Notes under the pieces: model-generated
Told to the model about the DNA's origin: nothing
Seen by the model: the letters and a program-made list of their open reading frames with translations, nothing else
The model's database searches: none
Assembly (NCBI GenBank): GCA_041946735.1
Contig: JBHGAY010000016.1
Location: forward strand, 63,157-127,156
Length of the DNA stretch: 64,000 nt
Direction of reading: 5' to 3'
DNA from: Candidatus Eiseniibacteriota bacterium
Lineage (GTDB): Bacteria; Eisenbacteria; RBG-16-71-46; CAIMUX01; VGJL01
Part shown: positions 4,018-37,767 of the stretch, piece after piece
How positions within the stretch are numbered: the stretch's first letter is position 1
How the letters are laid out: the number at the start of each line of letters is the position of its first letter
Translations under genes and position numbers: made by a program

Positions 4018-5706
4018 TCAGCGGAGCAGGACGACCGGCCTCCTCGCCACCTCGCTCCCGTCGCGCATCACACGGACGAAGTACACGCCGGCGGGCAGTC
4101 GCGTTCCGTCTGAGTCCCGCCCGTCCCAATGGAACGCGGACTCCGGCCTGTTGCGGAGGAGCCGTCCCGACGCGTCATAGATCCGGATCTCGATCCGGCT
4201 CCCGGGCTCCGTAGAAGAGAAGGCGATGCTCGCGGATCCCTGGAACGGGTTCGGAGCGATCCGCAGTCCCGAGATCCAGGAAGTGTCTTCGTAGATGCCG
4301 GCGGCAGGGCATCCGATCCCGAAGGCGCCGATCAAGCCGCAACCGGGAGGCGACAGGTCGGGCATGCAGGGGGAGTCGCGTTGGAGCGTGAAGTCGTAGG
4401 CGGATGGATCGCAGAAGAGAGGATCCTCACTGATGTTCCCGTCGAGGCCGGTCGGATCCTGACAGACGCCGCCATAGTTGCCGTTCGCATGGCCGTACGC
4501 ATCGTTGCAGTCGAAGTCGATCATGCCCTGCCCGGCGCAGGTGAAGCCGGCTCCCTCGCTTCGGTTTGCATAGACGATGTTGCGGGAGAAGCTGGGGGTG
4601 GAAGCGCCGTAGACGGCGACCCCTCCGCCATCGACAAGGGCGACGTTTCGGGCAATCGTGTTCTCCGCCACGGATCCGTAGCAGTTGTGAAGGAAGAGAC
4701 CGCCACCTTCGCCGCGAATTGGATAGTTCTCGTAGGCGGAGCTGTCGGTGTTGGCGGCGAAGAGGTTCCGCTCGATCCTCACGCCGCACTCGTATGCGTA
4801 GAGAGCTCCTCCTTCTGTCGCGCGGTTCTCGAGGAACCGATTCTCCAAGATCGTCACGTCCCCGCAGCTCTCGAGATAGATTGCTCCGCCTCGTGCGACG
4901 GCGTCTGGTTCGGCCTGCCAGCCGATCGTCTGACAGTCCGCAAAGAGGTTCCGCTCGATCTCGATCCGGCCGGGCACCGAAGATGCCTCAATGGCAGCCC
5001 CTCGTCCCGAGATGCCGTCGTCGCTCATGGCCCTGCAGTGGAGGAAGAGGTTGTCGTGGATCGCCGCGGCGGGGGCGAGCACGTTGACCCCTACGGTTTC
5101 GATGAACTGGTTCGACTCGATCCCAACCCCTCCGGCATCGACCTGCACCGCAGGGTTGGTGTAGAACCAGCGCAACTCGTTCTCTCGCACGATGGCGCCC
5201 GGGCCTCTCACCCAGACGCCGCCCCCCCAGCCGTGGTGTTCGAGATTGTTGTCCTCGATCACGACTTCTGCAGACTCCTCGAGGATCGTGATCGCCCAGC
5301 CCATGAAGCTGACGATGTTGAACCCCTCGATCCGGCTGCGTGATCCATGGACGAGGATCGTCGACTCCCAGTCATCGAGGACGAGCGTCGCCTTGGCCGA
5401 ATAGACGGAGAGCAGCGTCACGTCGGAGCGCGGCATGGTCAGCCCTTGGGCGCCAAGGTCGTAGCCACCGGGCCAGACCGCGACCGTGTCGCCAGGCTGC
5501 GCCAGGTCGAGCGCTTCTTGCACGGTCGGGATCTCGTTCGGGACCTCCCAGGTCTCGGCGTACGCGATCCCGGCCACAAGCGCGAGCAAGGTAAGACAGA
5601 CGGAGAGGCGGTTAAGAGGATGGAGACAATAGAAACGGTGGAAACCACCGAGACAGACAGGGCCGGCGCGAGCCGATCTTGCCGTCGGTCCCGTTTCCTG
5701 GTTCAT
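4018..5706 (-). CDS. Secreted right-handed parallel beta-helix protein with FlgD-Ig/T9SS-type CTD
   Basis: PTVQEALD N-terminal motif, GGA(I/L)Y and F..N repeats, GNISEDPLFC..DSPC..CGLIGA..GC, then PNPF..YDASGR..WDGRD..GVYF; true start uncertain. Confidence 0.8.
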   Translation of the reverse strand: MNQETGPTARSARAGPVCLGGFHRFYCLHPLNRLSVCLTLLALVAGIAYAETWEVPNEIPTVQEALDLAQPGDTVAVWPGGYDLGAQGLTMPRSDVTLLSVYSAKATLVLDDWESTILVHGSRSRIEGFNIVSFMGWAITILEESAEVVIEDNNLEHHGWGGGVWVRGPGAIVRENELRWFYTNPAVQVDAGGVGIESNQFIETVGVNVLAPAAAIHDNLFLHCRAMSDDGISGRGAAIEASSVPGRIEIERNLFADCQTIGWQAEPDAVARGGAIYLESCGDVTILENRFLENRATEGGALYAYECGVRIERNLFAANTDSSAYENYPIRGEGGGLFLHNCYGSVAENTIARNVALVDGGGVAVYGASTPSFSRNIVYANRSEGAGFTCAGQGMIDFDCNDAYGHANGNYGGVCQDPTGLDGNISEDPLFCDPSAYDFTLQRDSPCMPDLSPPGCGLIGAFGIGCPAAGIYEDTSWISGLRIAPNPFQGSASIAFSSTEPGSRIEIRIYDASGRLLRNRPESAFHWDGRDSDGTRLPAGVYFVRVMRDGSEVARRPVVLLR

Positions 5707-23323: not shown

Positions 23324-25282
23324 CTAGTGGAAGCTGGCGACCAGGTTGCGGACGACCAAGGTCCAGCCGTCCGCGAGGACGAACAGCAGGAGCTTGAACG
23401 GCAGCGAGACCATCATCGGCGGCAGCATGAACATTCCGAGCGACATCAGGACCGAGGCGACGATCAGGTCCACGACGACGAACGGCAGGAACAGGACGAA
23501 ACCCATCTGGAAGGCGGCGCGCAGCTCGCTCGTCACGAAAGCGCTCACCACGGTCACGGTCGGGATCTGATCGACCGAGTCGACCTCTTCGACCCCGCTC
23601 ATTTCGCTGAACATCGCCAGGTCCTTCTCGCGAGTGTTGACGAGCATGAACTCGCGGAACGGCTTGACCCCTTCGCGGAACGCCTCCTGCTGGGTGATCC
23701 GTCCGTCGAGATACGGCTTCAGACCGGCTTGGTGCGCCTGCTGCAGGACCGGGTTCATCACGACCCCGGTCAGGAGGATCGCGAGCGCGACCAGGATCTG
23801 TCCCGGCGGCGTCGTCTGCGTGCCGAGCGCGGGGCGGAGGAAGTGCAGGACGATCAGGATCCGCGTGAAGCTCGTCATCAGGAGGAAGAGGGCCGGCAGG
23901 AGCGTCATCGCGCCGATCAGGACGACGAGGCCTACGGCACCCGAGAGGTGGAGCACGTCTCCGCCCTGGCCGATCGTCACCTCGACCTGCGGCGGGACCG
24001 GCCCGCGGACGCCCAGGCGGCGAGCCTCGGCCGAGAGCGCGGCCGCCTCGCCGTCGATCACGGACGCGTCGCCCGGGTCGAGGGCCGGCGCGGGGATCGT
24101 CACGTCGGTCGGGATCGTCTCGACGGTGCGCGGCGTGGGATCGGCGTTCGCGGGGACGTCGGCCACGGGGGACGAAGCGCTGTCTTCCGGCGCAGCGGCC
24201 GCCTCGCTCGCGGCCGTGGATGCGGCGGTGGTGTCGAACACCCCGTCGTGAACGAGCTCGAGCGCGAGGGGCGCTTGCGCAAGCGTGTCGGCGAGCGCGG
24301 GGGCCTGGAGGTCGGCCGGGACGTCGACCTGGAGATCGACGACGGGAGGAGCCGCCTCTTCCTGCGCCGCCGCGACGGTCGCGAAGGCGAGGAGAGCGAC
24401 GACGATCGCCGGGAGGAACGGATCGTGCGCGTGAAGGCGCGCGAGCGCGAGCGAAGGCCCGGGGCCGATGCGGCTCGCCGCGTCCGGCTTCTCGAGGAGG
24501 CGTGGGCGGCGGCGGGCGGCCGGAGCGGCGGCCGGAACGGCCGGCATCGGCGGTGGTGTCGAAGGCGCGGCTGCGGCCTCTCGCCTGGCGGTAGCCGTCT
24601 TTGCCGTCGTGCGGCGCGGCCGCTTCGCTTCGGCCGTCGGCGTCGCCAGCTTCGGCGTCGCCGGCTTCGCAACCGATGTCCGGCACGCGGTTCTCTTCCG
24701 CGGCGCGGGAGGCGGCGCCAACGGCATCGGAGCGGAAACCGCCGGGCGTCGCAGCGGCGTGAGAGCGGCGACGCGGATCGCGCCCGCCGCAGCGGTGAGG
24801 CGACCGGCGTTCACGATCCCTTCGAGGCCGCGCAGGCCGTGCAGGCCGCGCAACCCGCGCACGCCGGGCAACCCTCGCAGGCCGCGCAGCCCGCCGAGCT
24901 GCATCTCGAGCGCGCGCCCGAAGGAGATCGCGCCGCGCCGCTCTGCGGATGGTGCCGCTGAGTTCTCGGCAGCCCGCTCCTCGGCAGCGCCCCCGTCGAC
25001 GCCGGCGAGTGCATCGCGGCGCTCGTCGCCCGACAGCTCCACCAGCATCCGCGAACCGCCTTCGCTCGTGGAGATGACGAGCAAGCGCGGTCCCACCTGG
25101 ATGAGAGCGATCCCCTGCTTCGGTCCGAGCGAGACGCGCTTGAGAACACGGAGCGTGAGGCCGCGCGCCGCGGTGCTTCCCGTCCCCTGCATCCGTCGCA
25201 GCAGGTGCAGGCTCGCGAAGAGGAGGCCGAGCGTCAGCAGCAGCGCGCCGGCCATCCCCGGGATTCCGCTTCCTCCTGTCAC
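23324..25282 (-). CDS. fliP: FliO-FliP fusion with a long Ala/Pro/Arg-rich linker
   Basis: GTG at 25282 overlaps the fliN stop; FliO-like N-terminus (TM then LRVLKRVSLGPKQGIALIQVG); FliP C-terminus (MTSFTRI, PPGQIL, SELRAAFQMGF, MFMLPP..SLPFKLLLFVLADGW); one open frame. Confidence 0.9.
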   Translation of the reverse strand: MTGGSGIPGMAGALLLTLGLLFASLHLLRRMQGTGSTAARGLTLRVLKRVSLGPKQGIALIQVGPRLLVISTSEGGSRMLVELSGDERRDALAGVDGGAAEERAAENSAAPSAERRGAISFGRALEMQLGGLRGLRGLPGVRGLRGLHGLRGLEGIVNAGRLTAAAGAIRVAALTPLRRPAVSAPMPLAPPPAPRKRTACRTSVAKPATPKLATPTAEAKRPRRTTAKTATARREAAAAPSTPPPMPAVPAAAPAARRRPRLLEKPDAASRIGPGPSLALARLHAHDPFLPAIVVALLAFATVAAAQEEAAPPVVDLQVDVPADLQAPALADTLAQAPLALELVHDGVFDTTAASTAASEAAAAPEDSASSPVADVPANADPTPRTVETIPTDVTIPAPALDPGDASVIDGEAAALSAEARRLGVRGPVPPQVEVTIGQGGDVLHLSGAVGLVVLIGAMTLLPALFLLMTSFTRILIVLHFLRPALGTQTTPPGQILVALAILLTGVVMNPVLQQAHQAGLKPYLDGRITQQEAFREGVKPFREFMLVNTREKDLAMFSEMSGVEEVDSVDQIPTVTVVSAFVTSELRAAFQMGFVLFLPFVVVDLIVASVLMSLGMFMLPPMMVSLPFKLLLFVLADGWTLVVRNLVASFH

Positions 25283-25650
25283 GCCGCCGCCGACGTCCCG
25301 CACCCCGGCGCGGCGCCGCCCAGGAGCCTCGTAAGGCGGACGCCGAAGCGATCGCCGACGACCACGACCTCGCCCTGCGCGAGCTTCCGGTCGCTGACGT
25401 AGACGTCGACCGGCTCGCCGACCATCCTCTCGAGCGGGATCACCGATCCGGCGGAGAGCTGCAGGAGATCCTGCACCGTCATCTCCGTCCGTCCAATCTC
25501 GATCACGACCGGGATCGAGATGTCCAGCAGGCTGGCGAGACCCGCGCTTCCGTCTTCGGTCCCGCCACCGGCGGCGACCGCTCCGTCCGGGGCGCCCTGC
25601 TCCTGCGACCACGCCGCCTGCGCCTGCGATTCGCTCGGCGATTGCTCCAT
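25279..25650 (-). CDS. fliN: Flagellar motor switch protein FliN
   Basis: LLDISIPVVIEIGR..GSVIPLE..GEPVD..GEVVVVGDRFGVR. Confidence 0.95.
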   Translation of the reverse strand: MEQSPSESQAQAAWSQEQGAPDGAVAAGGGTEDGSAGLASLLDISIPVVIEIGRTEMTVQDLLQLSAGSVIPLERMVGEPVDVYVSDRKLAQGEVVVVGDRFGVRLTRLLGGAAPGCGTSAAA

Positions 25651-25652
25651 GC

Positions 25653-26801
25653 TCACGACACCCTCCCTTTGCGAGCGCGCGGACCCTGCGGCGGGCCCGA
25701 CGCGGGAATGGCCTGCACGATCCGGACGGCGAGCTGCTTGCGATCGCGACCGGCGGCGGCGAGATAGCGAAGCGATCCGTTCAGGCGGACTTCGAGTAGC
25801 GCGTCGGCCGGGATGCCGGTGTCGATCGTCCGGCCGGGATGGAGAGACGCGACCTCGCGCGCGGACAGCACGAAGCGGGGGAGCCGCGCATCGACGGTGA
25901 GCCGGACCTGCGCGAGCGAGCTGAGGATCGCCTCGCTCTCCGGCCCGCCGGCCGCCGTCGCCGCGCCATCCGGATCGCCTGCGGTCGCGCCGTTGGCAGC
26001 GACAGCGCCGCCCGCGCGCCCATGCGCCACGCCATCCGCCCGCTGCAGCATGGGCGCGACCACCCTCATCGGCGCGGCGTACACGAGCGACCCGCGCGTC
26101 GCGCCGGCGCTCACGCGGAAGGTCGCGAGGAACATCTCCTCCTCGGGCGCCGGCAGCGGGAGCATCTCCGGATCGGCTTCGTGCTGCAGCGGCCGCGCGA
26201 TGAGCTTCCACCGTCCTTCCCAAGCGATCGCGAGCCGCTCGAGGATCGTCTCGGCGAGGGCGCGGATCGTCCCCTCCTCGATCGGCGTCATGCGCCGCCC
26301 GAGCGGGGCCGTCCGCTCGCCCGGACCGCCGAAGGAGCGGTCGATCAGGAACGAGACGAGCGGCGGCGAAAGCTCGATCACGCCATGCTCCGCGCCGCCG
26401 CCATCGCCGCCCGCCCCGAACACGAACGCCGCGCAAGGCGAGGGCAGCGAGGACAGGAAGTCGATCGACGGGACCGATTCGACGCCCGCGAGCGAGATCT
26501 CGATCGGTGTCCGCAGGCGCGTCGACAGGACCGCCTGCGTCGCGGCGGCGAACCGGCCTTGGATGGAGTCGAGGAGCGGGCGCTTGTCGGGCGCGATCGC
26601 CGCCGGACGCGTGAAGTCGTAGGGGACGACGACGACCGGCTCGGCTTGGACGCTCTCCTCGGGCAGACCCTGGACGATCGCGTCGATCTGCCTCTGCGTG
26701 AGGATCGTCGAGAGGATCGTCGCCGGCGCGTTCGCTGCCCGCGTTGTCGTCATCGGCTCCGTCATCGGCTCCGTCATCGGCTTCGCCATCGATGGCCTCA
26801 T
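25653..26801 (-). CDS. fliM: Flagellar motor switch protein FliM
   Basis: LTQRQIDA N-terminal motif, YDFTRP, FGG.G..R.MT.IE, C-terminal SpoA-like domain; start ambiguous (several in-frame ATGs in a 12-bp repeat). Confidence 0.88.
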   Translation of the reverse strand: MRPSMAKPMTEPMTEPMTTTRAANAPATILSTILTQRQIDAIVQGLPEESVQAEPVVVVPYDFTRPAAIAPDKRPLLDSIQGRFAAATQAVLSTRLRTPIEISLAGVESVPSIDFLSSLPSPCAAFVFGAGGDGGGAEHGVIELSPPLVSFLIDRSFGGPGERTAPLGRRMTPIEEGTIRALAETILERLAIAWEGRWKLIARPLQHEADPEMLPLPAPEEEMFLATFRVSAGATRGSLVYAAPMRVVAPMLQRADGVAHGRAGGAVAANGATAGDPDGAATAAGGPESEAILSSLAQVRLTVDARLPRFVLSAREVASLHPGRTIDTGIPADALLEVRLNGSLRYLAAAGRDRKQLAVRIVQAIPASGPPQGPRARKGRVS

Positions 26802-26808
26802 CGCGCGC

Positions 26809-27318
26809 CTACTGCAGGACGAACTGCGGAAGGTAGACACGGATCCAAGCCGGATTGCCGGCGAGCGGAGCGACCGCTTCGCCGAGCATTTGCTTCAAGG
26901 AATCGCGGGCGTAGGGCTGGACGAGCAGCTCCATCCGTTGCGCGGAGAGGAGCGCGGTGATCTCGTCGCGCGCGCGTACCTCGTTCTCGCGGAGCAGCGC
27001 GTCGGACTTCGCGTCGGGAACCTCGAACGCGACCGAGGCCATCAAGAAGCGCGTCCCCTCGGAGCCGGCCGGATTCACGATGACGTTCTCGAGCTGGAAG
27101 ACGGGTCCCCGCACCTCGGCAGCGGCGTGCTCCTGCCCTTGCTTCTGCTTCGATGCCGCCGCCCCGGCGTCCGTCCCCGTGGCTGCCCCCGCCGCCTTCG
27201 ATGCGCGCGCGGCCAGGATCCGAGGACCCACCACCTGGCTGCCCGCCGCCCCGCCAAGAATCAGCGCGCCGATCATCATCCCAAGAAAAAGGAGCTTGTT
27301 GCGTTCGAGCTTGATCAC
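26809..27318 (-). CDS. fliL: Flagellar basal body-associated protein FliL
   Basis: GTG start with AAAGGAG RBS, N-terminal TM, IVNPAGS.GTRFL, RDEI..LLS, VYLPQFVLQ. Confidence 0.92.
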   Translation of the reverse strand: MIKLERNKLLFLGMMIGALILGGAAGSQVVGPRILAARASKAAGAATGTDAGAAASKQKQGQEHAAAEVRGPVFQLENVIVNPAGSEGTRFLMASVAFEVPDAKSDALLRENEVRARDEITALLSAQRMELLVQPYARDSLKQMLGEAVAPLAGNPAWIRVYLPQFVLQ

Positions 27319-27404
27319 CGCCCTTGGTTCTCCTTTCGCCCGCAGTCCCGGCGCCCGCGCGCGCAGGCCACCCCGCACGAGGCGCGTTCCCCCGCATCCC
27401 GCTC

Positions 27405-27749: not shown

Positions 27750-28982
27750 ATGGCCACCACGATGCGCAATGTCTCCGCAGCTTCCGGCTTCGTCGCTTCG
27801 GCCTCCGGCGCCTTTCTGTTCCTCGGCGCCTTTCTGCTCCTCGGCGCCTCTCTGCTACTCGGAGCCGTTCCGGCGGCCTTCGGGGTCGTCCGCACGGTCT
27901 ACCCCGACGGCTCTGGCGAGTACCCAACGATCCAGGCGGCGGTCGATGCCTCGGTGGACGGCGACGTGATCGAACTCGCTCCGGGCACGTTCACCGGCGC
28001 CGGCAATCGAGACGTGGAGGTTCCCGCTCGGTCGCTCACCATCCGCTCCCAGTCGGGCGATCCCGACGCCTGCGTCGTCGATTGCGAGCACGCCGGCCGT
28101 GCGTTCTCCTTCGTGGCGCGCGCGGCGGGGCAGGCGCTCGAAGGCATCACGATCACCGGCGGGCTGACCACCGAGGGTGGCGGCGGCGCGCTCCGGCTGA
28201 ACTCCGGAGTGACCGTCTCGGACTGCGTCTTCCAAGGCAATCACACGGAGTATGGGGGGGGTGCAGTGGTCGTGGACGAAGTCGCCCCGGTCTTTCTCCG
28301 CTGTCGGTTCCTGGACAACTCCGCGCAATACGCCGGCGGAGCCTTAGCCGGAGGCGGCACGGCGCCACAGCAGACATCCCCCGTGTTCGAGGACTGCCAG
28401 TTCGTGGGGAACGTGGCGGCCGACTTCGGCGGCGGCGCGGTCTTTCTCGAAGCGGTCGCGCTCCGGGATGCGACGTTCCGCGGCTGCACGTTCGCGCGAA
28501 ACAGCGCGCAGCGCGGCGGCGCGCTCCTGCTCTACGGATTCTCGCCACTCCTCGAAAGCTGCACGTTCGTCCACAACGCGGCTTCCGGTGGCGGCGGCGT
28601 GGTCGAGTGCGTCTTCTCGGGCTACTGGCCGGCCAGTCCGACGATTACCAACACGATCCTTGCCTTCTCGACTGTGGGCGCGGCCGTGACCTGCTCGGCC
28701 GGCAGCCAGCCCACGCTCCTTTGCTCGGACGTCTACGGCAACGCGGGAGGGGACTGGGTCGGTTGCATCCAGGATCAAGCCGGGGAGGAAGGGAACATCA
28801 GCGAAGACCCGCTCTTCTGCGGGGACGAAGAAGACGACTACACGATCGCGAGCGGCTCGCCCTGCGCGCCACAACACGATCCCGACTGCGGCCTGATCGG
28901 CGCCTGGCCGGTCGGCTGCGATGGACCGGTGCCGGTCGTCGTGACGAGTTGGGGACGGATCAAGAGAGGATATGGTCGCTAA
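27750..28982 (+). CDS. Secreted right-handed beta-helix protein (GGA/FxxN repeats) with C-terminal SWGRIK tail
   Basis: DGSGEYPTIQAAVD, GGA repeats, GNISEDPLFC..SPC..CGLIGAWPVGC, ends PVPVVVTSWGRIKRGYGR. Confidence 0.85.
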   Translation: MATTMRNVSAASGFVASASGAFLFLGAFLLLGASLLLGAVPAAFGVVRTVYPDGSGEYPTIQAAVDASVDGDVIELAPGTFTGAGNRDVEVPARSLTIRSQSGDPDACVVDCEHAGRAFSFVARAAGQALEGITITGGLTTEGGGGALRLNSGVTVSDCVFQGNHTEYGGGAVVVDEVAPVFLRCRFLDNSAQYAGGALAGGGTAPQQTSPVFEDCQFVGNVAADFGGGAVFLEAVALRDATFRGCTFARNSAQRGGALLLYGFSPLLESCTFVHNAASGGGGVVECVFSGYWPASPTITNTILAFSTVGAAVTCSAGSQPTLLCSDVYGNAGGDWVGCIQDQAGEEGNISEDPLFCGDEEDDYTIASGSPCAPQHDPDCGLIGAWPVGCDGPVPVVVTSWGRIKRGYGR

Positions 28983-29060
28983 CAGTTTCCGAGGGTAAAC
29001 CACCGTGGGTTTTGTCTTTCCGCGCTGAAGCGATCCTGCCGTTCCTTCGAAGGAGGAATC

Positions 29061-30293
29061 ATGCGAGCCGCGGCCGCCGTTTTGCTCCTATGGCTAATGT
29101 CTCTTGTCTGGTTCTTCTCCGGCGCCGCCTTTGCCGACAAGATCGGCGGTCCCGAGAAGCTATGGCGTCCCATTTCCCCACCCGCGCGAGCCATCTATCC
29201 GGAGCAGGAGCCCAACGATTCCTGCCCGGGGCAGTTGATTTCCGGGGGGGACACCGTCTCGCCCGCTTCCTATGACCCTTCCAGCGACGATGACTGGTAT
29301 CAGTTCTTCGCTGTCGCTGACGTCCAGGTAACGATTGCGACCGGGACCTACGACGGTTCGGACGTGGACACGTATCTGGAGCTGTACGACTCGGACTGCG
29401 TGACCCTGCTGGCCTACAACGACGACGGCGGTCCGGGACTGTTCTCATTCCTCTCGAACTTCCAGGTCCCGCACACCGGCTATTACAACATCAAGAGCTT
29501 CTCCTACGGACACCACTACACCGGCTTCTACGAGCTATATCTGTATGGCGCCCCTCCGCCGATACCCGATCCGAACGATGTCTGCACCACCGGCTATGTC
29601 ATTTCCCGATGCGGAACCGGCACTGTGAGCGGCGACATGTCGCCGGATCACGACGACTACGATCCCGGAGCGGATGGCTGCGCCAATGGATATCCCGAGG
29701 CAGGAATCGACGTGACGTACCAGATGGATCTCGAGCAGGGCGATTGGGTCGACCTCACGTACAACACTCCGAACCACGACGCGGCCATCTACATCATCAC
29801 CGACTGCGAAAATCCGGCGGGGTCTTGCGTGGTTGGAGCGGACGCGGGATACGACACCGAGACGATCAACTGGATCGCTCCAGCGGCAGGCACCTACTAC
29901 GTGATCCTGGATCACTACGGCACCGGCCAAGGCGCAGGACCGTGGACACTCGAGTACGACATGCTGAACTGCCCGCCGCCGGGCGCGGGGGCCTGTTGCT
30001 ACGAGAACAACTCGTGTCACGTTCTTTGGCAGGAGGAATGCGAGGCCAGTGGCGGCATCTTCCATCCGGAGTGGGAGAACTGCGACGTCGCCGACTGCGG
30101 GGTTACCGACCCGCCGCGCGCGTGCTGCGTCGACGGCGATTGCTACTTCGTTCCCTTCGATATATGCGTGATCGAAATGGGCGGTCAGTGGATGGGCGAT
30201 CCGTCGTGCGAGGGGGTCGAATGCCCTCCGGTTGCGGCCATCTCCGTTACCTGGGGCAAGATCAAGGCTTCCTACCGAGGCGCGACCGAGTAA
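29061..30293 (+). CDS. Secreted protein with PPC-like domains, Cys-rich (G/R)ACC repeats and C-terminal TWGKIK tail
   Basis: AAGGAGG RBS, signal peptide ..GAAFA, EQEPND..DWY..DTYLELY..NDD, GACC and RACC repeats, ends PVAAISVTWGKIKASYRGATE. Confidence 0.85.
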   Translation: MRAAAAVLLLWLMSLVWFFSGAAFADKIGGPEKLWRPISPPARAIYPEQEPNDSCPGQLISGGDTVSPASYDPSSDDDWYQFFAVADVQVTIATGTYDGSDVDTYLELYDSDCVTLLAYNDDGGPGLFSFLSNFQVPHTGYYNIKSFSYGHHYTGFYELYLYGAPPPIPDPNDVCTTGYVISRCGTGTVSGDMSPDHDDYDPGADGCANGYPEAGIDVTYQMDLEQGDWVDLTYNTPNHDAAIYIITDCENPAGSCVVGADAGYDTETINWIAPAAGTYYVILDHYGTGQGAGPWTLEYDMLNCPPPGAGACCYENNSCHVLWQEECEASGGIFHPEWENCDVADCGVTDPPRACCVDGDCYFVPFDICVIEMGGQWMGDPSCEGVECPPVAAISVTWGKIKASYRGATE

Positions 30294-30319
30294 GACCGGC
30301 AGGCGAAAGGGGGATGTGA

Positions 30320-30679
30320 GAAGGACGGGAGACAGCGGCCATCCTGCATGCGTCGGGGAAGGCTCCCGGATCGACGAGCCGCGCCTACCATGCCGCCTTT
30401 CACGCTGCCCGAGCTCTGCTCCTGACCTTGGGACTCCAGCCGCGCAGCCACGAGGGAGTGCGCCACCTGCTCTCTCCTCTCTTCGTGAGAAGCGGCAAGC
30501 TTGATCCTCGGCTCGCGCGAGCGCTATCGAGTGTCGCGAGGACTCGCGAAGACGCAGACTACGACGCGGCCGCCGTCTTCACGACCGCCGACAGCGAGGA
30601 GGCGCTTCGCGCGGCGGAGCAGTTCCGGGCGGCCGCACGCGCGATCCTTCAGGTGGACGGTTGGTTGAAGCGAGGGTAG
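30320..30679 (+). pseudogene. 5'-truncated HEPN domain gene
   Basis: Frame extended upstream of ORF 30428 gives SRAYHAAFHAARALL..SHEGV..REDADY; in-frame TGA at 30317 and no usable start; no nucleotidyltransferase partner nearby. Confidence 0.7.
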
Positions 30680-31196
30680 CGAGTCCTCTTTGGGCAGGTC
30701 GGCGCCGAGCTAGGCCGTCGGGCCGATCTTGCGCCGCCGCATCTTCCGCCATCCGGCCCGGCACAGCACCTCAGGGGGAATGTGGGGCCGCCGGCCATCG
30801 AGGCATCTCAGCACCGGCGGCCCCAGGCTGACTTTCACCCGGCGCCCCGTCGGGCGCCGGCCCGTAGCGTTTCCGCAGCGCGGCGGCCGGCTACGCGGCC
30901 GGGTCCATCGAGGCGCCGGCCGTCCCGGCCGTCCCCGTCCCGGTCGTCGCGTCCGATGTCGCCTTCACTTCAAGCGGGATGAGAGCGCGCGCTCCCGGAC
31001 GATTGCCGCGCCTCCAGGCTTGAGCCGGGGAGAAAGGGCCTCGGTGGCGGGGCGACGACGACTCCTCGTGCGTTCCGGGTTCGAGATGTCACGGGTTCGA
31101 GATTGGAGGAGCAGAGCGGACGGCCTACAATTGCCTCCCGGTACAATCGAGCCGGCGCTCTCTGTGGAAGTACGAATGAGAGGGGAGGCACGTACG

Positions 31197-31961
31197 ATGC
31201 CCAAGAGCCTCGGGTCGCTCGGGGGAGAAGAGCCGGGTTCCTTGCTGTCATTCGAGCGCGTGCCGGCCGTTCGCTCCCGCGTTGTCGCCGTGTACCTTCT
31301 CGCGGCGCTCGCGCTGGCGCTGGCCGTGCCGGGGGCGCGGTCCAACGGCGCGGCGGAGAAGAGCGCCGGCGGGACGGGGAGGAGCGACCTCCAGCGCACC
31401 TTCGTGGGACCGGACGCCTTTGCAGTGAGCTTCGATTCGGAGTGGATCCGGCTCGCCGTCCTCGGCGACAGCCTGGAGGTCCGAGCGAGCTACTTCCTCC
31501 GCTGCCGCGAGCCCGACGGCGCTCGCGTCACCCTGTTCTTCCCTTTCCCGGAGGACTCGCTCCTCGGTCCGGCGCGGATGATCTCGCTTCATGCAGGCGT
31601 CGAGCGCGCCGCGCTGTCGGCCATCCCGTGGCGTCCGATGCCTCCCACGTCTGCCATGTCTGCGGTCCGGTTCGAGACGCCGCCGTGCACCGGGGACACT
31701 GTCTTCGTCGACGCGGTCTACCGGCAGCAACTCCTGGGCCCCTACGCCCGATACATCGTGACGACCACCCGGGCCTGGCATCGCCCGCTCCGGCACGCCC
31801 GGTTCGACGTCCGTTTGCCCGAAGGCGCGGTCCCGATCGACTTCAGCTTTCCGTTCGAGGCCCGCGAGGACTCGGTCGGGCGCTTCTACTCCTACGAGGT
31901 CGACTCCTTCTATCCGGATCGCGACATAATCGTCCGCTGGAAGGGGGTAACGGGCGAGTAG
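31197..31961 (+). CDS. Secreted hypothetical protein (possibly DUF4424-like)
   Basis: GGGGAGG RBS before ATG 31197, hydrophobic LLAALALALAV segment, FFPFP, YIVTTTRAW.RPL..A.F motif. Confidence 0.6.
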   Translation: MPKSLGSLGGEEPGSLLSFERVPAVRSRVVAVYLLAALALALAVPGARSNGAAEKSAGGTGRSDLQRTFVGPDAFAVSFDSEWIRLAVLGDSLEVRASYFLRCREPDGARVTLFFPFPEDSLLGPARMISLHAGVERAALSAIPWRPMPPTSAMSAVRFETPPCTGDTVFVDAVYRQQLLGPYARYIVTTTRAWHRPLRHARFDVRLPEGAVPIDFSFPFEAREDSVGRFYSYEVDSFYPDRDIIVRWKGVTGE

Positions 31962-32204
31962 CTCGAACGTTGTAGCCACCCGCTGCCAGCAGGCGGTCCC
32001 GCGGCTCCTGTCAATCCGACGCGTCCTCCTGCGGCTCCCGGATGGGCGGCGATCGTTGCTTGCGACCTGCACGCACACGCCTCGCGATTGATGTCCTGGC
32101 AGGAGAGGCGCATACTCTCTGCGCGTCATTCCATCGTGATTGCGGTTCCGGGGGTGCCGCAGCCCGGACAGCGCGCGGCGGGTACCCGGAGGAAGGAGAC
32201 CACC

Positions 32205-33176
32205 GTGCCGCGCCACACCTTCACCGCTCCGCGTTCGATCGCGCTTCTCGTCCTGATCCCTCTCGCCGGCGCTCTGAGCGGACTCGTCGATCCGCAAGCG
32301 GCGCAAGCCAACCTCGGCCCGGCGGCGTTGATCTACTTCGATGTGCGTCCGTTCGAGGGCCCTTACCCGTGTGAACCGCCTTCGATGGACTGCGAGGACA
32401 TGCAACAGACGACCCCCGCGGAGGGGTACGTCGAATTCAAGATTTACGTCCAGAGCAACTCCGGGACCCCCGTGACCAGCTTCACGGCCGACATGACTTG
32501 GCCGGATGAATGGTGGCTCTACGACTTCTCGTTCTGCCAGGGGGGAACCGGCACGTTGGATTACTGGGGAGGGAATCCGCACCGCCTCGAGGTTCACTTC
32601 CCGTGCGAGGGCCAGCCGTATCCCTTCCTCGCTGTGCATATGATCATGTCGGTTCACGGCTATGGCAAGCTGACCACGGACAACGCCCACTTGTGGGCAC
32701 ATTGCCCACCCGAGGGACATGACGTGATAGCCGACTCCATGTACGGCGAGGCGGGTCCCGGCTGCGAGTTCACGAACCAGCCATGCGACTTCTGGGAATT
32801 CGCCTGTGAGCCTAACTTCTCTCAGGACCACTTGGACTTGTCGGCTGTTGCGGGCGGAGACGCCCATGGCGAGATCTCTTTCAGCGCGGGGTATTGGTGG
32901 ATGTACGAATGGTACCCCTGCTCGCACGATTGGGACACACAGACAGGCGAGACATGGTGCACCGCCGACTGCGTGGAGGGCGGGGACGCGTTCGAGACGA
33001 TCCTCAGGGTCGACGCTGACGCGGCCGAGCTGGAGCCCGGCGTCTACGAGACCTGGGTGCAGGTCGAGAGGTGGCAGCACACCCTCGCCCGCTGCATCGA
33101 CGTGACCCTCACGGTCAGCGAGCCCACGGCGGTTTCAAAGGTGAGCTGGGGGGCCGTCCGGGCGATGTTTCGATAG
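32205..33176 (+). CDS. Secreted Cys/Trp-rich protein with BACON-like domain and C-terminal SWGAVR tail
   Basis: AAGGAG RBS, GTG start, signal peptide, ELEPGVYETWVQV..VTLTV, ends PTAVSKVSWGAVRAMFR. Confidence 0.8.
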   Translation: MPRHTFTAPRSIALLVLIPLAGALSGLVDPQAAQANLGPAALIYFDVRPFEGPYPCEPPSMDCEDMQQTTPAEGYVEFKIYVQSNSGTPVTSFTADMTWPDEWWLYDFSFCQGGTGTLDYWGGNPHRLEVHFPCEGQPYPFLAVHMIMSVHGYGKLTTDNAHLWAHCPPEGHDVIADSMYGEAGPGCEFTNQPCDFWEFACEPNFSQDHLDLSAVAGGDAHGEISFSAGYWWMYEWYPCSHDWDTQTGETWCTADCVEGGDAFETILRVDADAAELEPGVYETWVQVERWQHTLARCIDVTLTVSEPTAVSKVSWGAVRAMFR

Positions 33177-33304
33177 GTCTGAGTGTGAGAAGCCACCGGC
33201 GGGAGCCGGTCCCGCCGGTGGCATTCGCCTTGGGGGGCGATCACCCGAAATGTACTGGCGCGGTGTCGCCCCCCGTTCAGACTCTAGAGACTCTGAGGCG
33301 ATCT

Positions 33305-34102
33305 TCAGTTCCCGATCGGCTGGATGTCGATCGACTCCACCGGCCAGCCGGTTGGTTCGTATCCTCCCTCGGGCGCCCTCGGGAAGATCTGGACCGCCCG
33401 CACCCTCGCGTACGTGCCCTCCGGATAGCCGGAGCCTTCGTGCAGGTAGCCGGTCGCTTCCATGTGAATCGTGGCATGCAGGATCTCCTGGTCCGGCTCG
33501 GTGAAGAGGAGCAGCTGGAAGAGATCCGGGATCGGCGCGCCCGGCTGCGGGTTGATGAAGTCGAGATCCATGTAGAAGTCACCGAGGGCAGGCGGAGCGC
33601 CGGCGAGAACATCGGTCACGCGTGAGCCGAAGATCAACGGGTCGAGGTAGTAATCTTCGATCTCGGCCACCCACGCCAGGATGTTGCGGGCGTGCACGCG
33701 AAGGTGGATGAGGGCCCGACCGTCCGGCAGCGTTCGCTCGGTAAGGTTGCCCGTGATATCGGTGCCCAGCGACATGGCGCCGCCGGACTCCTGCTGCAAC
33801 CAGCGATCCGCGTTGCCGAGGTACTCGAACATGAAGTTCAGGATGAAGTCGGAGTTGGACCAGCAGACGAAGTTCTTGAGCGGCGGCTCGTAGTCGATGC
33901 ATCCTCCCATCCCGTCGGGAACGCAGTAGGTTCCTTGCGTCGAGGTGTAATCCGAGAACGGCCGCTGTACGGCCTGCCCGGCGATCGTGGAAATCGCCTC
34001 GTATGATGGAGCAGGCGTCGTCGGCGGAGTCGAGTCGTTGGAACAACCAAGACCAACCGACAACAGGGCGAACAACACGAGCAGACGTCGTGACGGTGAC
34101 AT
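33305..34102 (-). CDS. Hypothetical lipoprotein
   Basis: GGAGG RBS, ATG 34102, MSPSRRLLVLFALLSVGLG-C lipobox followed by a Pro/Thr linker. Confidence 0.75.
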   Translation of the reverse strand: MSPSRRLLVLFALLSVGLGCSNDSTPPTTPAPSYEAISTIAGQAVQRPFSDYTSTQGTYCVPDGMGGCIDYEPPLKNFVCWSNSDFILNFMFEYLGNADRWLQQESGGAMSLGTDITGNLTERTLPDGRALIHLRVHARNILAWVAEIEDYYLDPLIFGSRVTDVLAGAPPALGDFYMDLDFINPQPGAPIPDLFQLLLFTEPDQEILHATIHMEATGYLHEGSGYPEGTYARVRAVQIFPRAPEGGYEPTGWPVESIDIQPIGN

Positions 34103-34537
34103 CAGTCCCTCCTGTGTGGTGTGGCGTGCGTCAAGAACTCGAGCGGACATCCCCGGCATTGCGGCCGCCGCGATGTCAGGGCATCGCTTGCCGTGACGAT
34201 CGGCGCTAAGGCAGCATCTGGCTGTTGCGCGCCGCTCCCTCACCGTTTCGCGACTTCGCGTGTGCCCTATGGATGACCGCGGCGCCAGTCTAGGCGGATG
34301 TTAGGTTTGGGACAACGAAGGGCTTCGCGAAAGGTCCTGAGACTTCCCGGTGATCCTCGATATGGGGATGATTCCTGCACGGCATCCGGGAGAATTGCGC
34401 AACGGCATAACGGCATCGTGGGGACATCGACCAACACGCCGTAATCGCCGGCCGCATCCAGGGGGGACGCGGCCGGCGGGCGCGAGCGATAGGACCTGCC
34501 CGGAGAGCCTCTCCTACTGTCCTTCTCTTCTACTCTC

Positions 34538-36139
34538 TTACCTATGAACGCCGAGTAGCAGGAGCTTCTGCGCCGCGGCGCGCTCCCCGCGGTTGCCGGT
34601 CGATTCCAGCCGCGCGAAGTAGACCCCGGTCGGCAACGACATGCCCGCCTCGCTGCGGCCGTCCCAGCGAACGGCGGCCGAGGCGGAAGCGCCCTCGCCC
34701 CCCGCGGCCGGTAGCTCGATCCGGCGGACGACGCTCCCTTGCACATCGTGGATGGTGACGATGCACGCGCCGGCCCCGCCGAACGCAGGCGCAGGCCCAG
34801 TCGCCGCGAGCCGGATCTCGTTTCCAGGACGGAAGGGGTTGGGGAACGCGAGCGACGCCAAGCGTGCGCCGGGGCCCATGTCCGTCTCGACCGAGGCAGG
34901 GGCCGGGTGCAGTCGCTCGGCCAGGGTGTAGCTCGTGATGCCATCCGCGAGCGTCCAGAAACCGGCGGTCCAGATGTCGCAGTCCCCCACGATCTCCATG
35001 CCGCCGCTGCGGATGACGTAGGTGGCGCCGGGGACATCGGCCGGGACCTCGGTCCAGCTCACGCCGTCCCAATGCCAGTAGCCGTTCCATCCGGAGGACC
35101 ATAGGTCGTTGGGGGCGACCGCGGCGAGGGAGCCGCCGGAGTTCGGCGGCGGGGGCATCATCGTCCACTGCGAGCCGTTCCAGCGCATCAAGAGCGCGCC
35201 GTCTGCATCGCTGCCGCCGATCGCCCAGACGTCGTTGGGGCCGGTGGCGACGAGGTCTTCGATGCCGCTCTGGTGAATGTCCTCCATCGGGCTGGGGACG
35301 TGCGACCACTCGTGACCGTCCCAGTGGTAGGTGACGGCCCGGAAGGTGCCGGCGATGTTGCGGTAGTCGCCGGCCGCCCAGACGTCGTCGGACGCGATCG
35401 CGACGACGGCGTCCAACTCGTGGTGGCGGTTGGCGACGAGCGGGACGTCGACGTCGGTCCATTCCGATCCGTCCCAGTGCAGCGCCATCGGGACCGATGC
35501 GGAAGAGGCGTCGCCGTAGCCGTTCGCGATGCCGACCGCCCAGACGTCATCGTGCGCGATCGCCTCCACCTCGTAGGCGAAGCCACCCCGATCGGCGTAG
35601 GGATACTCCACCTGCGGCCGCAGCGTGACGGTATCGACGTAGTCCCAGGAGTCGTTGCGCCAGCGCATCACGAGCGGGAGGTTGTTGGCCGGGGGGCTGG
35701 TCGTGACGTTGCCGGCGATCCAGACATCGCCGTTGGGGGCGTGGTCGACGCCCACCGTCTCCGGATTGGTTCCCAGGTCATCGGTGGGCGGCAGATCGAC
35801 GAAGTTCCAGGCGGATCCGTTCCAGCGGATCGCGATCGGCCCGCTCCCGGCGGGCTCGTTGCGCCAGAGGCCGACCGACCAGGCGTCGGACGGCGAGAGG
35901 GCGGTGATCGCGGTCAAGCGGTTGACGCTGTTGCCGGCGTTCGGCGTGGGCACGTGCTCCCAGGGACCGCAAAGGCCTAGCGCGGCGACCGGCGACGAAG
36001 CGGCGACGACGGCCAGCATGAGGAGCATGGCGGTCTCTGCGAGTCCGACGACCGGGCGAACGCGAGCGAGGTCCGGGGTGCGATGCCGGGTGCGAAGCGG
36101 AGCGAGATGCGGGGTAGGGCGCGGCACTGTCGGGCACAT
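34538..36139 (-). CDS. Secreted beta-propeller-like protein (DVWAVG..W(D/N)G..W repeats) with FlgD-Ig/T9SS-type CTD
   Basis: About seven repeats; PNPF..IHDVQG..WDGRS..GVYF..KLLLL; AAGGA RBS. Confidence 0.82.
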   Translation of the reverse strand: MCPTVPRPTPHLAPLRTRHRTPDLARVRPVVGLAETAMLLMLAVVAASSPVAALGLCGPWEHVPTPNAGNSVNRLTAITALSPSDAWSVGLWRNEPAGSGPIAIRWNGSAWNFVDLPPTDDLGTNPETVGVDHAPNGDVWIAGNVTTSPPANNLPLVMRWRNDSWDYVDTVTLRPQVEYPYADRGGFAYEVEAIAHDDVWAVGIANGYGDASSASVPMALHWDGSEWTDVDVPLVANRHHELDAVVAIASDDVWAAGDYRNIAGTFRAVTYHWDGHEWSHVPSPMEDIHQSGIEDLVATGPNDVWAIGGSDADGALLMRWNGSQWTMMPPPPNSGGSLAAVAPNDLWSSGWNGYWHWDGVSWTEVPADVPGATYVIRSGGMEIVGDCDIWTAGFWTLADGITSYTLAERLHPAPASVETDMGPGARLASLAFPNPFRPGNEIRLAATGPAPAFGGAGACIVTIHDVQGSVVRRIELPAAGGEGASASAAVRWDGRSEAGMSLPTGVYFARLESTGNRGERAAAQKLLLLGVHR

Positions 36140-36440: not shown

Positions 36441-36518
36441 ACCGACTACCGAGTGCCGACTACCGACCGCCGGCTACCGACTGCCGGCTACCGGCTACGC
36501 GGCTACCGACTGCCGACT
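36441..36518. repeat. Degenerate heptamer tandem array, about 11 x RCCGRCT
   Basis: accgact accgagt gccgact accgacc gccggct accgact gccggct accggct acgcggct accgact gccgact, abutting the flgE stop. Confidence 0.85.
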
Positions 36519-37767
36519 ACCGCCTGAGGTTCACGAGCTCGTTCAGCATCTCATCGGCCGTCGAGATCACGCGGGCGTTCGCCTGGAACCCGCGCTGAGC
36601 GACGATCATGTTGCTGAACTCCTGCGATACGTCGACGTTCGAGCTTTCGAGCGCGCCCGGCGTGATCGTGGACGAAGCCGATCCACCCGCGAAGGAGAGG
36701 ATCGCCGCCCCGGAGTTCGGAGTCTCCTCGTAAACATTGTCGCCGGAGCGGATCAATCCGCCGGGATTGTTGAAGCTCGCGAGCGAGATCTGCGCAAGCA
36801 CGCGCGTGGTTCCGTTCGAGAAGGTGCCGTTCACCATCCCGCGGGAGTCGACGCTGACGTTGACGAGGTCGCCCGCCTGGTAGCCGTCCTGGCTGTTCAC
36901 GACGGCGTTCGAGGCGTTGGCGAATCCCGAAAGACCGTCGAACCCGCCGACCGTCCCCGGGTCGAGCGTGATCTCGAACGGCTCGGCGTTGGGCGGCGTC
37001 AGCGTGATCGACTCGCCGCCGCCCGGATAGGTGAAGCTTTCGAGGCTACCGTCCGTGCCGAAGGTGACCGTCCCCTCGGTGTCGGGCGTGACCGGAGCGG
37101 TGTCGCAGGTGGCGACCCACGACCAGGTGCCCGGGCCGGTGTTCGTGAACAGGATCTGGAGATTGTGCGGAGTGCCGAGCGCGTCGTAGACGGTGATTCC
37201 CATCGAGTGGGTGTCGTCGACCTCGGCGTCGGCGTCGAGGTTGCCCGTGAGCGACACCAACGACGTCTCCTTGGCCGCCGCTTTGGCTCCGAGCGCGATC
37301 TCCACGTCGCTGATCGCCGCGGTGCCGTTGAACTTTCCGTTCTCGTCCGCGTTGACGCCCTGCAGAATGTAGCCCGAGAAGGGAGAGACGAGCCGGCCGT
37401 TCGCGTCGAGCTGGAAGTTGCCGGCCCGCGTGAAGACGCGGTTCTGTCCGTTGCTCAGCACGAAGAGGCCGTCCCCCTGGATCGCGAGGTCGAGCGGCTG
37501 GCCCGTGTTCTCGAGGCTCCCCTGCGTGAAGAGCTGGTCGATGCTGCCGACGTTGGTTCCGGTCCCGACCTGGACCGGGTTCATCCCACCGGTCATGTCG
37601 TCGGGCCGCTGCGCCTTCGACAGCACCTGCACGAACGCTTCCTCGAACGTCGCGCGCGATGCCTTGAACCCGATCGTGTTGACGTTCGCGATATTGTTGC
37701 CGATCACGTCCATCCGGACCTGGTGGCTCCGGAGCCCGGACACGCCGGCGAAAAGAGCACGCATCAT
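36517..37767 (-). CDS. flgE: Flagellar hook protein FlgE
   Basis: GVSGL..MDVIGNNIANVNT.GFK, DLAIQGDG, TRAGNF, LESSNVD..EF..MI.AQRGFQAN. Confidence 0.97.
   Translation of the reverse strand: MMRALFAGVSGLRSHQVRMDVIGNNIANVNTIGFKASRATFEEAFVQVLSKAQRPDDMTGGMNPVQVGTGTNVGSIDQLFTQGSLENTGQPLDLAIQGDGLFVLSNGQNRVFTRAGNFQLDANGRLVSPFSGYILQGVNADENGKFNGTAAISDVEIALGAKAAAKETSLVSLTGNLDADAEVDDTHSMGITVYDALGTPHNLQILFTNTGPGTWSWVATCDTAPVTPDTEGTVTFGTDGSLESFTYPGGGESITLTPPNAEPFEITLDPGTVGGFDGLSGFANASNAVVNSQDGYQAGDLVNVSVDSRGMVNGTFSNGTTRVLAQISLASFNNPGGLIRSGDNVYEETPNSGAAILSFAGGSASSTITPGALESSNVDVSQEFSNMIVAQRGFQANARVISTADEMLNELVNLRR

Follow-up and report, generated by a model that had tools for sequence, protein, structure and literature searches.

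A portable C-terminal tail in Eisenbacteria as a candidate sorting signal associated with a predicted outer-membrane barrel and two NTF2-like lipoproteins

Tail-bearing genes of the window

The stretch of DNA analysed (the window) comprises 64,000 nucleotides of a Candidatus Eiseniibacteriota bacterium (assembly GCA_041946735.1, contig JBHGAY010000016.1) and corresponds to positions 63157-127156 of genome contig C8. It contains three genes whose products end in the same short tail with a [TS]WG core, which is treated here as a candidate C-terminal sorting signal probably read by a predicted outer-membrane barrel and two lipoproteins, A and B, encoded elsewhere in the genome. The features concerned are listed below in window coordinates; coordinates preceded by a contig name refer to other contigs. 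Some proteins carry instead a C-terminal domain (CTD) of the T9SS (type IX secretion system) type. ORF stands for open reading frame.

27750..28982, + strand: right-handed beta-helix protein (PF13229, E 2e-9) with predicted signal peptide, bearing the TWG tail
28926..28982, + strand: tail 1, PVPVVVTSWGRIKRGYGR-stop, read directly; core S-W-G from 28947
29061..30293, + strand: Cys-rich PPC-domain protein (PF04151, E 4e-7) with predicted signal peptide, bearing the TWG tail
30228..30293, + strand: tail 2, PVAAISVTWGKIKASYRGATE-stop, read from the ORF end; four residues over the usual length
32205..33176, + strand: protein without known family, with predicted signal peptide, bearing the TWG tail; the ORF opens at 32088, the gene-calling script prefers the start at 32205
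33123..33176, + strand: tail 3, PTAVSKVSWGAVRAMFR-stop, read from the ORF end; canonical length
4018..5706, − strand: beta-helix paralogue of 27750-28982 with a CTD resembling T9SS type A, at about 4018-4257, in place of the tail, from family matches and alignment
34538..36139, − strand: neighbouring CTD-bearing protein without tail (comparison class), from the family scan

A sequence-only reading of this DNA had claimed that three signal-peptide proteins share this ending, and all three tails were found in place. It had also claimed that two beta-helix proteins share a block and then part into tail and CTD. Indeed, 27750-28982 and 4018-5706 align at 27% identity (E 9e-27) up to a shared GNISEDPLFC..SPC..CGLIGA..GC and diverge afterwards. 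The CTD of 4018-5706 matches FlgD_ig (PF13860), Por_Secre_tail (PF18962) and TIGR04183, all over cut-offs, and the family scan gave no TIGR04183 or PF18962 match in the three tail proteins of the window.

Occurrence of the tail in the genome

The consensus of the tail is P[VT]A[TV]E..[TS]WG.[VIL][KR][AGS]L[YF]R-stop. Six-frame matches to [ST][WF]G.[ILVM][KR] numbered 137 in the genome, and 84 of them sit 10-14 residues ahead of a stop. Among the 3433 genes called by our script, 75 matches were terminal and 5 internal, with about 3 terminal matches expected. A profile seeded on the terminal matches (>15 bits) gave 88 terminal and 2 internal sites, in agreement with the strict C-terminal position that had been postulated. 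One of the 88 terminal sites was discarded as a spurious ORF, which left 87 tail ORFs; 80 tail genes were called by the script, and 8 tail ORFs, mostly short, were uncalled.

Enrichment of signal peptides, likewise anticipated, was evident when these were scored by a crude rule: they were assigned to 61 of the 80 called tail genes, to 154 of 251 CTD genes and to 18% of 2542 other non-membrane genes. The expected absence of a transmembrane segment from the tail was confirmed, since none of the 80 tail genes encodes a membrane helix after residue 50. Tail proteins are small, with a median of 244 amino acids vs 588 for CTD bodies. Half of 20 cargo proteins picked for variety matched Pfam families (redoxin, spondin, lamin-tail, cupredoxin, CHRD, BNR, DUF4350, DUF7901 twice, DUF3344); one cargo protein is a lipoprotein and one a redoxin, and choice-of-anchor R was matched weakly.

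The motif might be part of the passenger folds or a translated DNA repeat. Against this, the 87 tail bodies fall into 36 BLAST clusters (the largest with 42 members) and cover at least ten named folds, and synonymous codon use in the tails is varied.

The tail appears to have no existing name, as the sequence-only reading had tentatively supposed: none was found in Pfam, NCBIfam or the literature searched. A Pfam scan of 75 tail peptides gave two stray weak matches only, and an NCBIfam scan of three tails, ten single-copy proteins (see below) and four lipoproteins gave nothing near cut-off, although HMMER filters may lose such short peptides in both scans. The literature search, which had subscription journals and supplements outside its scope, likewise brought up no account of tail, lipoproteins or barrel.

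Perfect tails also end frames of just 45-72 amino acids (C9:12063-12200, C48:4667-4885, C18:32680-32892, C45:59549-59734 and C1:146488-146667). The shuffling of tails may have left them behind as remnants or as genes with frameshifts.

A barrel and two lipoproteins co-occur with the tail

Phylogenetic profiling for a partner of the tail, as had been proposed, led to a barrel and two lipoproteins encoded outside the window:

C12:139724-141646, − strand: predicted outer-membrane barrel of about 640 amino acids, from its barrel-like sequence
C12:139100-139660, − strand: NTF2-like lipoprotein A, a paralogue of the tail-bearing lipoprotein on C7
C12:138364-138996, − strand: NTF2-like lipoprotein B, of the same family as lipoprotein A

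The order on C12 is barrel, lipoprotein A, lipoprotein B, then secD. The tail ORF C7:10674-11300 is itself a lipoprotein with three paralogues in the genome, two of which are A and B, in a row on C12. Lipoprotein A ends in W.D.R...TWGYARL and shares a [TS]W[GS].L[KR] pattern with the tail, while lipoprotein B stops directly after W.D, just ahead of that helix. Neither the barrel nor the two lipoproteins matched a Pfam or NCBIfam family, the Atlas neighbours of the barrel are barrels without names, and a search of PDB sequences with a lipoprotein A profile gave a single chance match (E 0.2). The A-then-B arrangement is repeated in loci fetched from relatives, and 26 of 30 loci have the barrel upstream.

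Many B-like paralogues bear the portable tail. In some, domains are arranged in tandem and a TWG helix comes after every one of them, so that the helix there requires no free C-terminus. P0018, P0020, P0022 and other lipoproteins of 360-630 amino acids have two or three NTF2-like B domains with their own TWG helix after each.

These proteins bear on the passenger-fold explanation. The helix does seem to form part of the fold of lipoprotein A and of B-like paralogues, and to that extent the refuting case named in the sequence-only reading stands; it fails for 86 of the 87 tail ORFs, which fall outside the A/B lipoprotein family. Together with the variety of bodies and codons the explanation by passenger folds or a DNA repeat is largely refuted, and we give it almost no credence.

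Relationship and predicted structure of the terminal helices

In 73 of 92 A proteins the best score of a profile of 86 cargo tails fell among the last 30 residues, compared with 14% for shuffles. The same was found in 12 of 12 A proteins taken from the Bacteroidota sample described below, where the match lies 11 residues from the end; these proteins end [ST]WS.[LFM][KR]..F.. in the register of the tail.

The AlphaFold model of lipoprotein A has a predicted local distance difference test score (pLDDT) of 93, with helix 155-160 at about 97. For the tail-bearing B paralogue on C7 the pLDDT was 94, with a loose linker at 76-81 and the tail end at 95. Both models are NTF2-like, with a curved beta sheet and three helices (Foldseek E 1e-7; Z 14, root-mean-square deviation 2.4 over 122 residues). 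Known NTF2-like proteins such as ring-hydroxylating dioxygenase beta subunits share the fold (Z 12-14) but less than 20% identity, and no specific relative was found in the structural comparison. Several of these beta subunits align through their C-termini with modelled tail residues, up to 182-183. C-terminal residues of dioxygenase beta subunits fill the NTF2 cavity, for which we found no confirming paper. In both models the TWG helix is predicted to pack in cis on the NTF2-like domain. The tail had been proposed to be an amphipathic helix; formation of a short helix is predicted by the models.

Docking in cis on a lipoprotein domain, as modelled, would also suit a role inside the periplasm, in which the tail serves as a tether or as a handle for assembly and keeps proteins attached to lipoprotein B or to one another, with nothing crossing the outer membrane. 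The lipoprotein and the redoxin among the cargo would fit such a role. However, bodies like those of tail proteins also carry T9SS CTDs, and the cargo domains (CHRD, spondin, lamin-tail, beta-helix, PPC and, weakly, choice-of-anchor R) are of kinds known from surface-sorted proteins. We regard a purely periplasmic role as improbable.

Comparison with the T9SS C-terminal domain

CTDs end 259 ORFs of the genome. Mutual exclusion of tail and CTD, as had been foreseen, was complete, in that no ORF has both among the 87 tail and 259 CTD ORFs, which is partly trivial because a protein has a single C-terminus. A CTD profile built from the genome matched none of the 88 tail ORFs. Nevertheless, 26 of the 88 tail bodies match a CTD body by BLAST, 18 of them right up to the junction, and the swaps span five families. 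The linkers ahead of CTDs share the linker pattern of the tail proteins (66 of 209 vs 3.4%).

The genome encodes SprA, PorU and eight PorV-family matches over cut-off in the family search (C13:32392, C24:20241, C11:94853, C35:24939, C72:4379, C11:14038, C10:72674 and C4:78206). Three of the PorV matches (on C13, C11 and C35) stand in a repeated cassette, behind a large gene of barrel-like sequence and one for a protein that is CTD-bearing or CTD-like. Peptidase C25 had 16 matches in the genome, and all 15 mapped to called genes end in a CTD. GldM, the sole part of GldKLMN searched for, had no match in the genome and none in the controls either.

These data allow the explanation that the tail is a miniature T9SS signal. 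Its bearers would exit via SprA, either with a PorV paralogue as carrier or after transfer from barrel-A-B as adaptor, and would be cut by PorU in the shared linker. PorP-like barrels act as such adaptors for type B CTDs. In favour of this speak the swaps at the same junction, the common linker pattern and the T9SS genes of the genome. Size and fold speak against it: the tail has about 17 residues and is predicted to be helical, whereas known CTDs are folded Ig-like beta-sandwich domains of 70-100 residues (PMC11285876). TIGR04183-like domains have been noted in Poribacteria, in passages that do not mention the tail (PMC3909097).

Distribution of the tail, the barrel-A-B module and SprA

Within the own phylum the tail pattern was found in 113 of 121 genomes (with 3 control matches in total), the A/B family in 116, the barrel in 91 (one query) and SprA in 118. 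A sample around a Krumholzibacteriota record had the tail in 28 of 31 genomes and A/B in 28 of the 30 searched. A pattern scan over 5 of 64 parts of GTDB gave 127 stretches; most of those with names carry the label Eisenbacteria, Krumholzibacteriota or Latescibacterota. Some records with tails are labelled Gemmatimonadota, Latescibacterota or Acidobacteriota at NCBI; these labels were not counted as phyla.

Family f8 of the own phylum (26 genomes) has 0-4 strict tail matches each, though most of its genomes have the barrel, the lipoproteins and SprA; it is either a tail-poor lineage or one with a variant ending. With labels and binning taken as given, a genome labelled Acidobacteriota (G126; L106, L166) has four tail matches and two A/B matches, and one labelled Gammaproteobacteria (G128; L162) has two tail matches.

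The Zixibacteria sample comprises 31 genomes around a Zixiibacteriota record, all 31 of which have SprA. A/B was found in 11, and the barrel in the same 11 and in none of the other 20. The same 11 genomes encode a single-copy signal-peptide protein of about 140 amino acids ending TWGKIKALF[KR], of which the tail is the most conserved part. On an SprA tree (one gene, poor root) the 20 module-negative genomes split among three separate groups. Two more genomes of this sample matched the tail pattern: G169, put down to chance, and G122, at a contig edge. Over all samples, tail matches in G169, G123, G323, G296 and L068 were rejected as chance, lying in frames of 12-17 amino acids, and L046, of 17 amino acids, was kept out of the tail alignment.

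The Bacteroidota sample comprises 151 genomes around a Bacteroidota record. A/B was found in 55, with two A/B matches in 54 of them. An end of the form TWG[SM][IL]K..F was present in 49 of these 55 by pattern and in 4 of 5 more by profile, thus in 53 of 55; G264, A/B-positive without a pattern match, was outside the profile step. All 18 clients fetched are one protein of about 135 amino acids, with a signal peptide, an FN3-like domain and the end RTWG[SM][IL]K[AE][MLI]F[RKQ]; this protein has relatives named Rhodothermales. None of the 96 A/B-negative genomes of the sample had a real tail match; three TWG-like matches sit in frames of 12-15 amino acids. A barrel profile matched 14 of 27 A/B-positive and none of 17 negative genomes. 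The two single-copy clients (L194-L201 and L222-L241) have differing small beta-rich bodies and near-identical tails. The Zixibacteria client had no match in the source genome, in eight other tail-rich or related genomes or in 18 Bacteroidota-sample genomes, one weak match aside.

The distribution of the tail tracks the barrel-A-B module, not SprA. Since related genomes are not independent and there are about four changes in all, the co-occurrence is a strong pattern on few events, and the Fisher tests computed overstate it.

For the explanation by a miniature T9SS signal the wider survey cuts both ways. SprA searches covered the own phylum and 36 further genomes, and SprA was present in all 36 of the latter in addition to the 118 mentioned; furthermore, the body of the Bacteroidota-sample client is also found inside CTD proteins. 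On the other hand, 20 of the 31 Zixibacteria genomes have SprA but lack both the module and the single-copy tail protein. We consider exit by way of the T9SS the main alternative, though less likely than the reading favoured below.

The tail was also considered as the substrate of a second, dedicated sortase of PorU-like kind, by which the cargo would be cut and anchored; the transpeptidase search was limited to PorU-like genes in 11 genomes. One of the peptidase C25 matches is such a second PorU-like gene (C1:130696-134796), and extra PorU-like matches occur in five of five tail-positive Bacteroidota-sample genomes. However, no tail gene lies within five genes of C1:130696-134796, and two Zixibacteria genomes with module and tail have one PorU match only, as do three negative ones (at most 40 candidates scored in each). 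We therefore attach little weight to a second sortase.

Gene neighbourhood in the window

The tail genes are flanked by genes at 23324-27378 and 36517-37767 (− strand) that we take to be flagellar (fliP, fliN, fliM, fliL, flgE). The tail and CTD genes at 27750-36139 form one block inside this presumed flagellar cluster. Between two tail genes lies a short ORF (30428-30679, + strand) that presumably resembles a HEPN-domain fragment.

Discussion

We favour, with a probability of about 55%, the reading that the tail is a portable C-terminal peptide that binds the helix-less lipoprotein B and brings small exported cargo to the barrel, by a route separate from that of CTD and SprA, to be passed or anchored there. 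Binding to B is suggested because lipoprotein A has a look-alike helix, B has none, and placement in cis is modelled. Cargo is predicted to be exported via Sec by its signal peptide. The helix site of lipoprotein B would be free and would take cargo tails in trans, and the barrel would then pass or hold the cargo. The small size of the cargo would reflect a pore narrower than that of SprA. One single-copy tail protein would represent the old client, and Eisenbacteria and Krumholzibacteriota may have spread the tail to dozens of genes.

Several observations weigh against this reading. Seven draft genomes (G061, G077, G081, G093, G094, G121, G151) gave no match to A/B despite 1-4 tail matches each, and five of these seven are 85-94% complete. 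Conversely, eleven module-positive genomes (8 of the own phylum, 3 of the Krumholzibacteriota sample) are without a strict tail match. G122 of the Zixibacteria sample has one tail match at a contig edge and no module, and G241 has A/B without a single-copy tail protein. The barrel does not adjoin A-B in the loci of the Bacteroidota sample. Kinship of the helices is also less than uniform: only 44 of 92 A helices scored above the 95th percentile of shuffles with the cargo-tail profile, and hhalign of the single-copy client with lipoprotein A was weak (probability 24%). The proposed binding in trans rests wholly on cis models, in which a high pLDDT speaks for placement, not for a site. Furthermore, the linker pattern common to CTD and tail proteins hints at common T9SS processing, and SprA in every tail-bearing genome group tested is compatible with the T9SS as the pore.

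Comparison with known systems helps to place the tail. Like the T9SS type A CTD (TIGR04183, PF18962; here PF13860-like), it is a C-terminal address on signal-peptide proteins, swapped among unrelated bodies, behind a similar linker and in the same genomes. It differs in length, in its predicted helix, in the lack of a CTD match, in its much smaller cargo and in a distribution that follows the module. T9SS type B CTDs with PorP/SprF barrels likewise mark a class of cargo that requires a barrel partner of its own, but the type B CTD is a folded domain and the barrel found here matches no family. PEP-CTERM/exosortase, LPXTG/sortase and GlyGly-CTERM/rhombosortase also work with short C-terminal tags that are portable and sit on many unrelated domains of surface type; the tail genes lack their membrane helix, and the candidate reader is a lipoprotein-barrel module instead of a membrane peptidase. 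As sequences, these comparisons suggest that the tail functions like a C-terminal sorting signal yet lacks the defining features of a T9SS CTD and of membrane-anchored tags. The LptD/LptE translocon is a 26-strand barrel plugged by a lipoprotein, and it resembles the present module as a large single-copy barrel encoded with lipoproteins; unlike it, the module has two NTF2-like lipoproteins, no family match and a tie to a peptide tag.

More tentatively, at somewhat below even odds, the parts may together form an undescribed outer-membrane export or display system of the Fibrobacterota-Chlorobiota-Bacteroidota group, in which a large barrel and two NTF2-like lipoproteins read a ten-residue C-terminal helix by helix complementation. 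Ignavibacteria/Rhodothermia-like genomes, and some of the Zixibacteria, would have a single conserved client of such a system, while in Eisenbacteria and Krumholzibacteriota its use would have grown to about 2% of the proteome. New in it would be its four parts without assigned family and the proposed mode of reading. Should SprA prove to be the pore, the tail would instead represent a new form of T9SS sorting. Rhodothermales, to which relatives of the Bacteroidota-sample client are assigned by name, include cultured members, which makes a question raised in uncultured bacteria testable.

If the favoured reading is true, the tag found at the end of dozens of proteins per genome across several uncultured phyla would have its reader, and the conserved barrel and both lipoproteins, none of which matches a family, would gain a function. 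Proteins that cross the outer membrane or become attached to it usually carry a folded domain or a membrane anchor as their signal. A soluble helix of ten residues that completes the fold of a lipoprotein would work on another principle and would make a very small tag for display.

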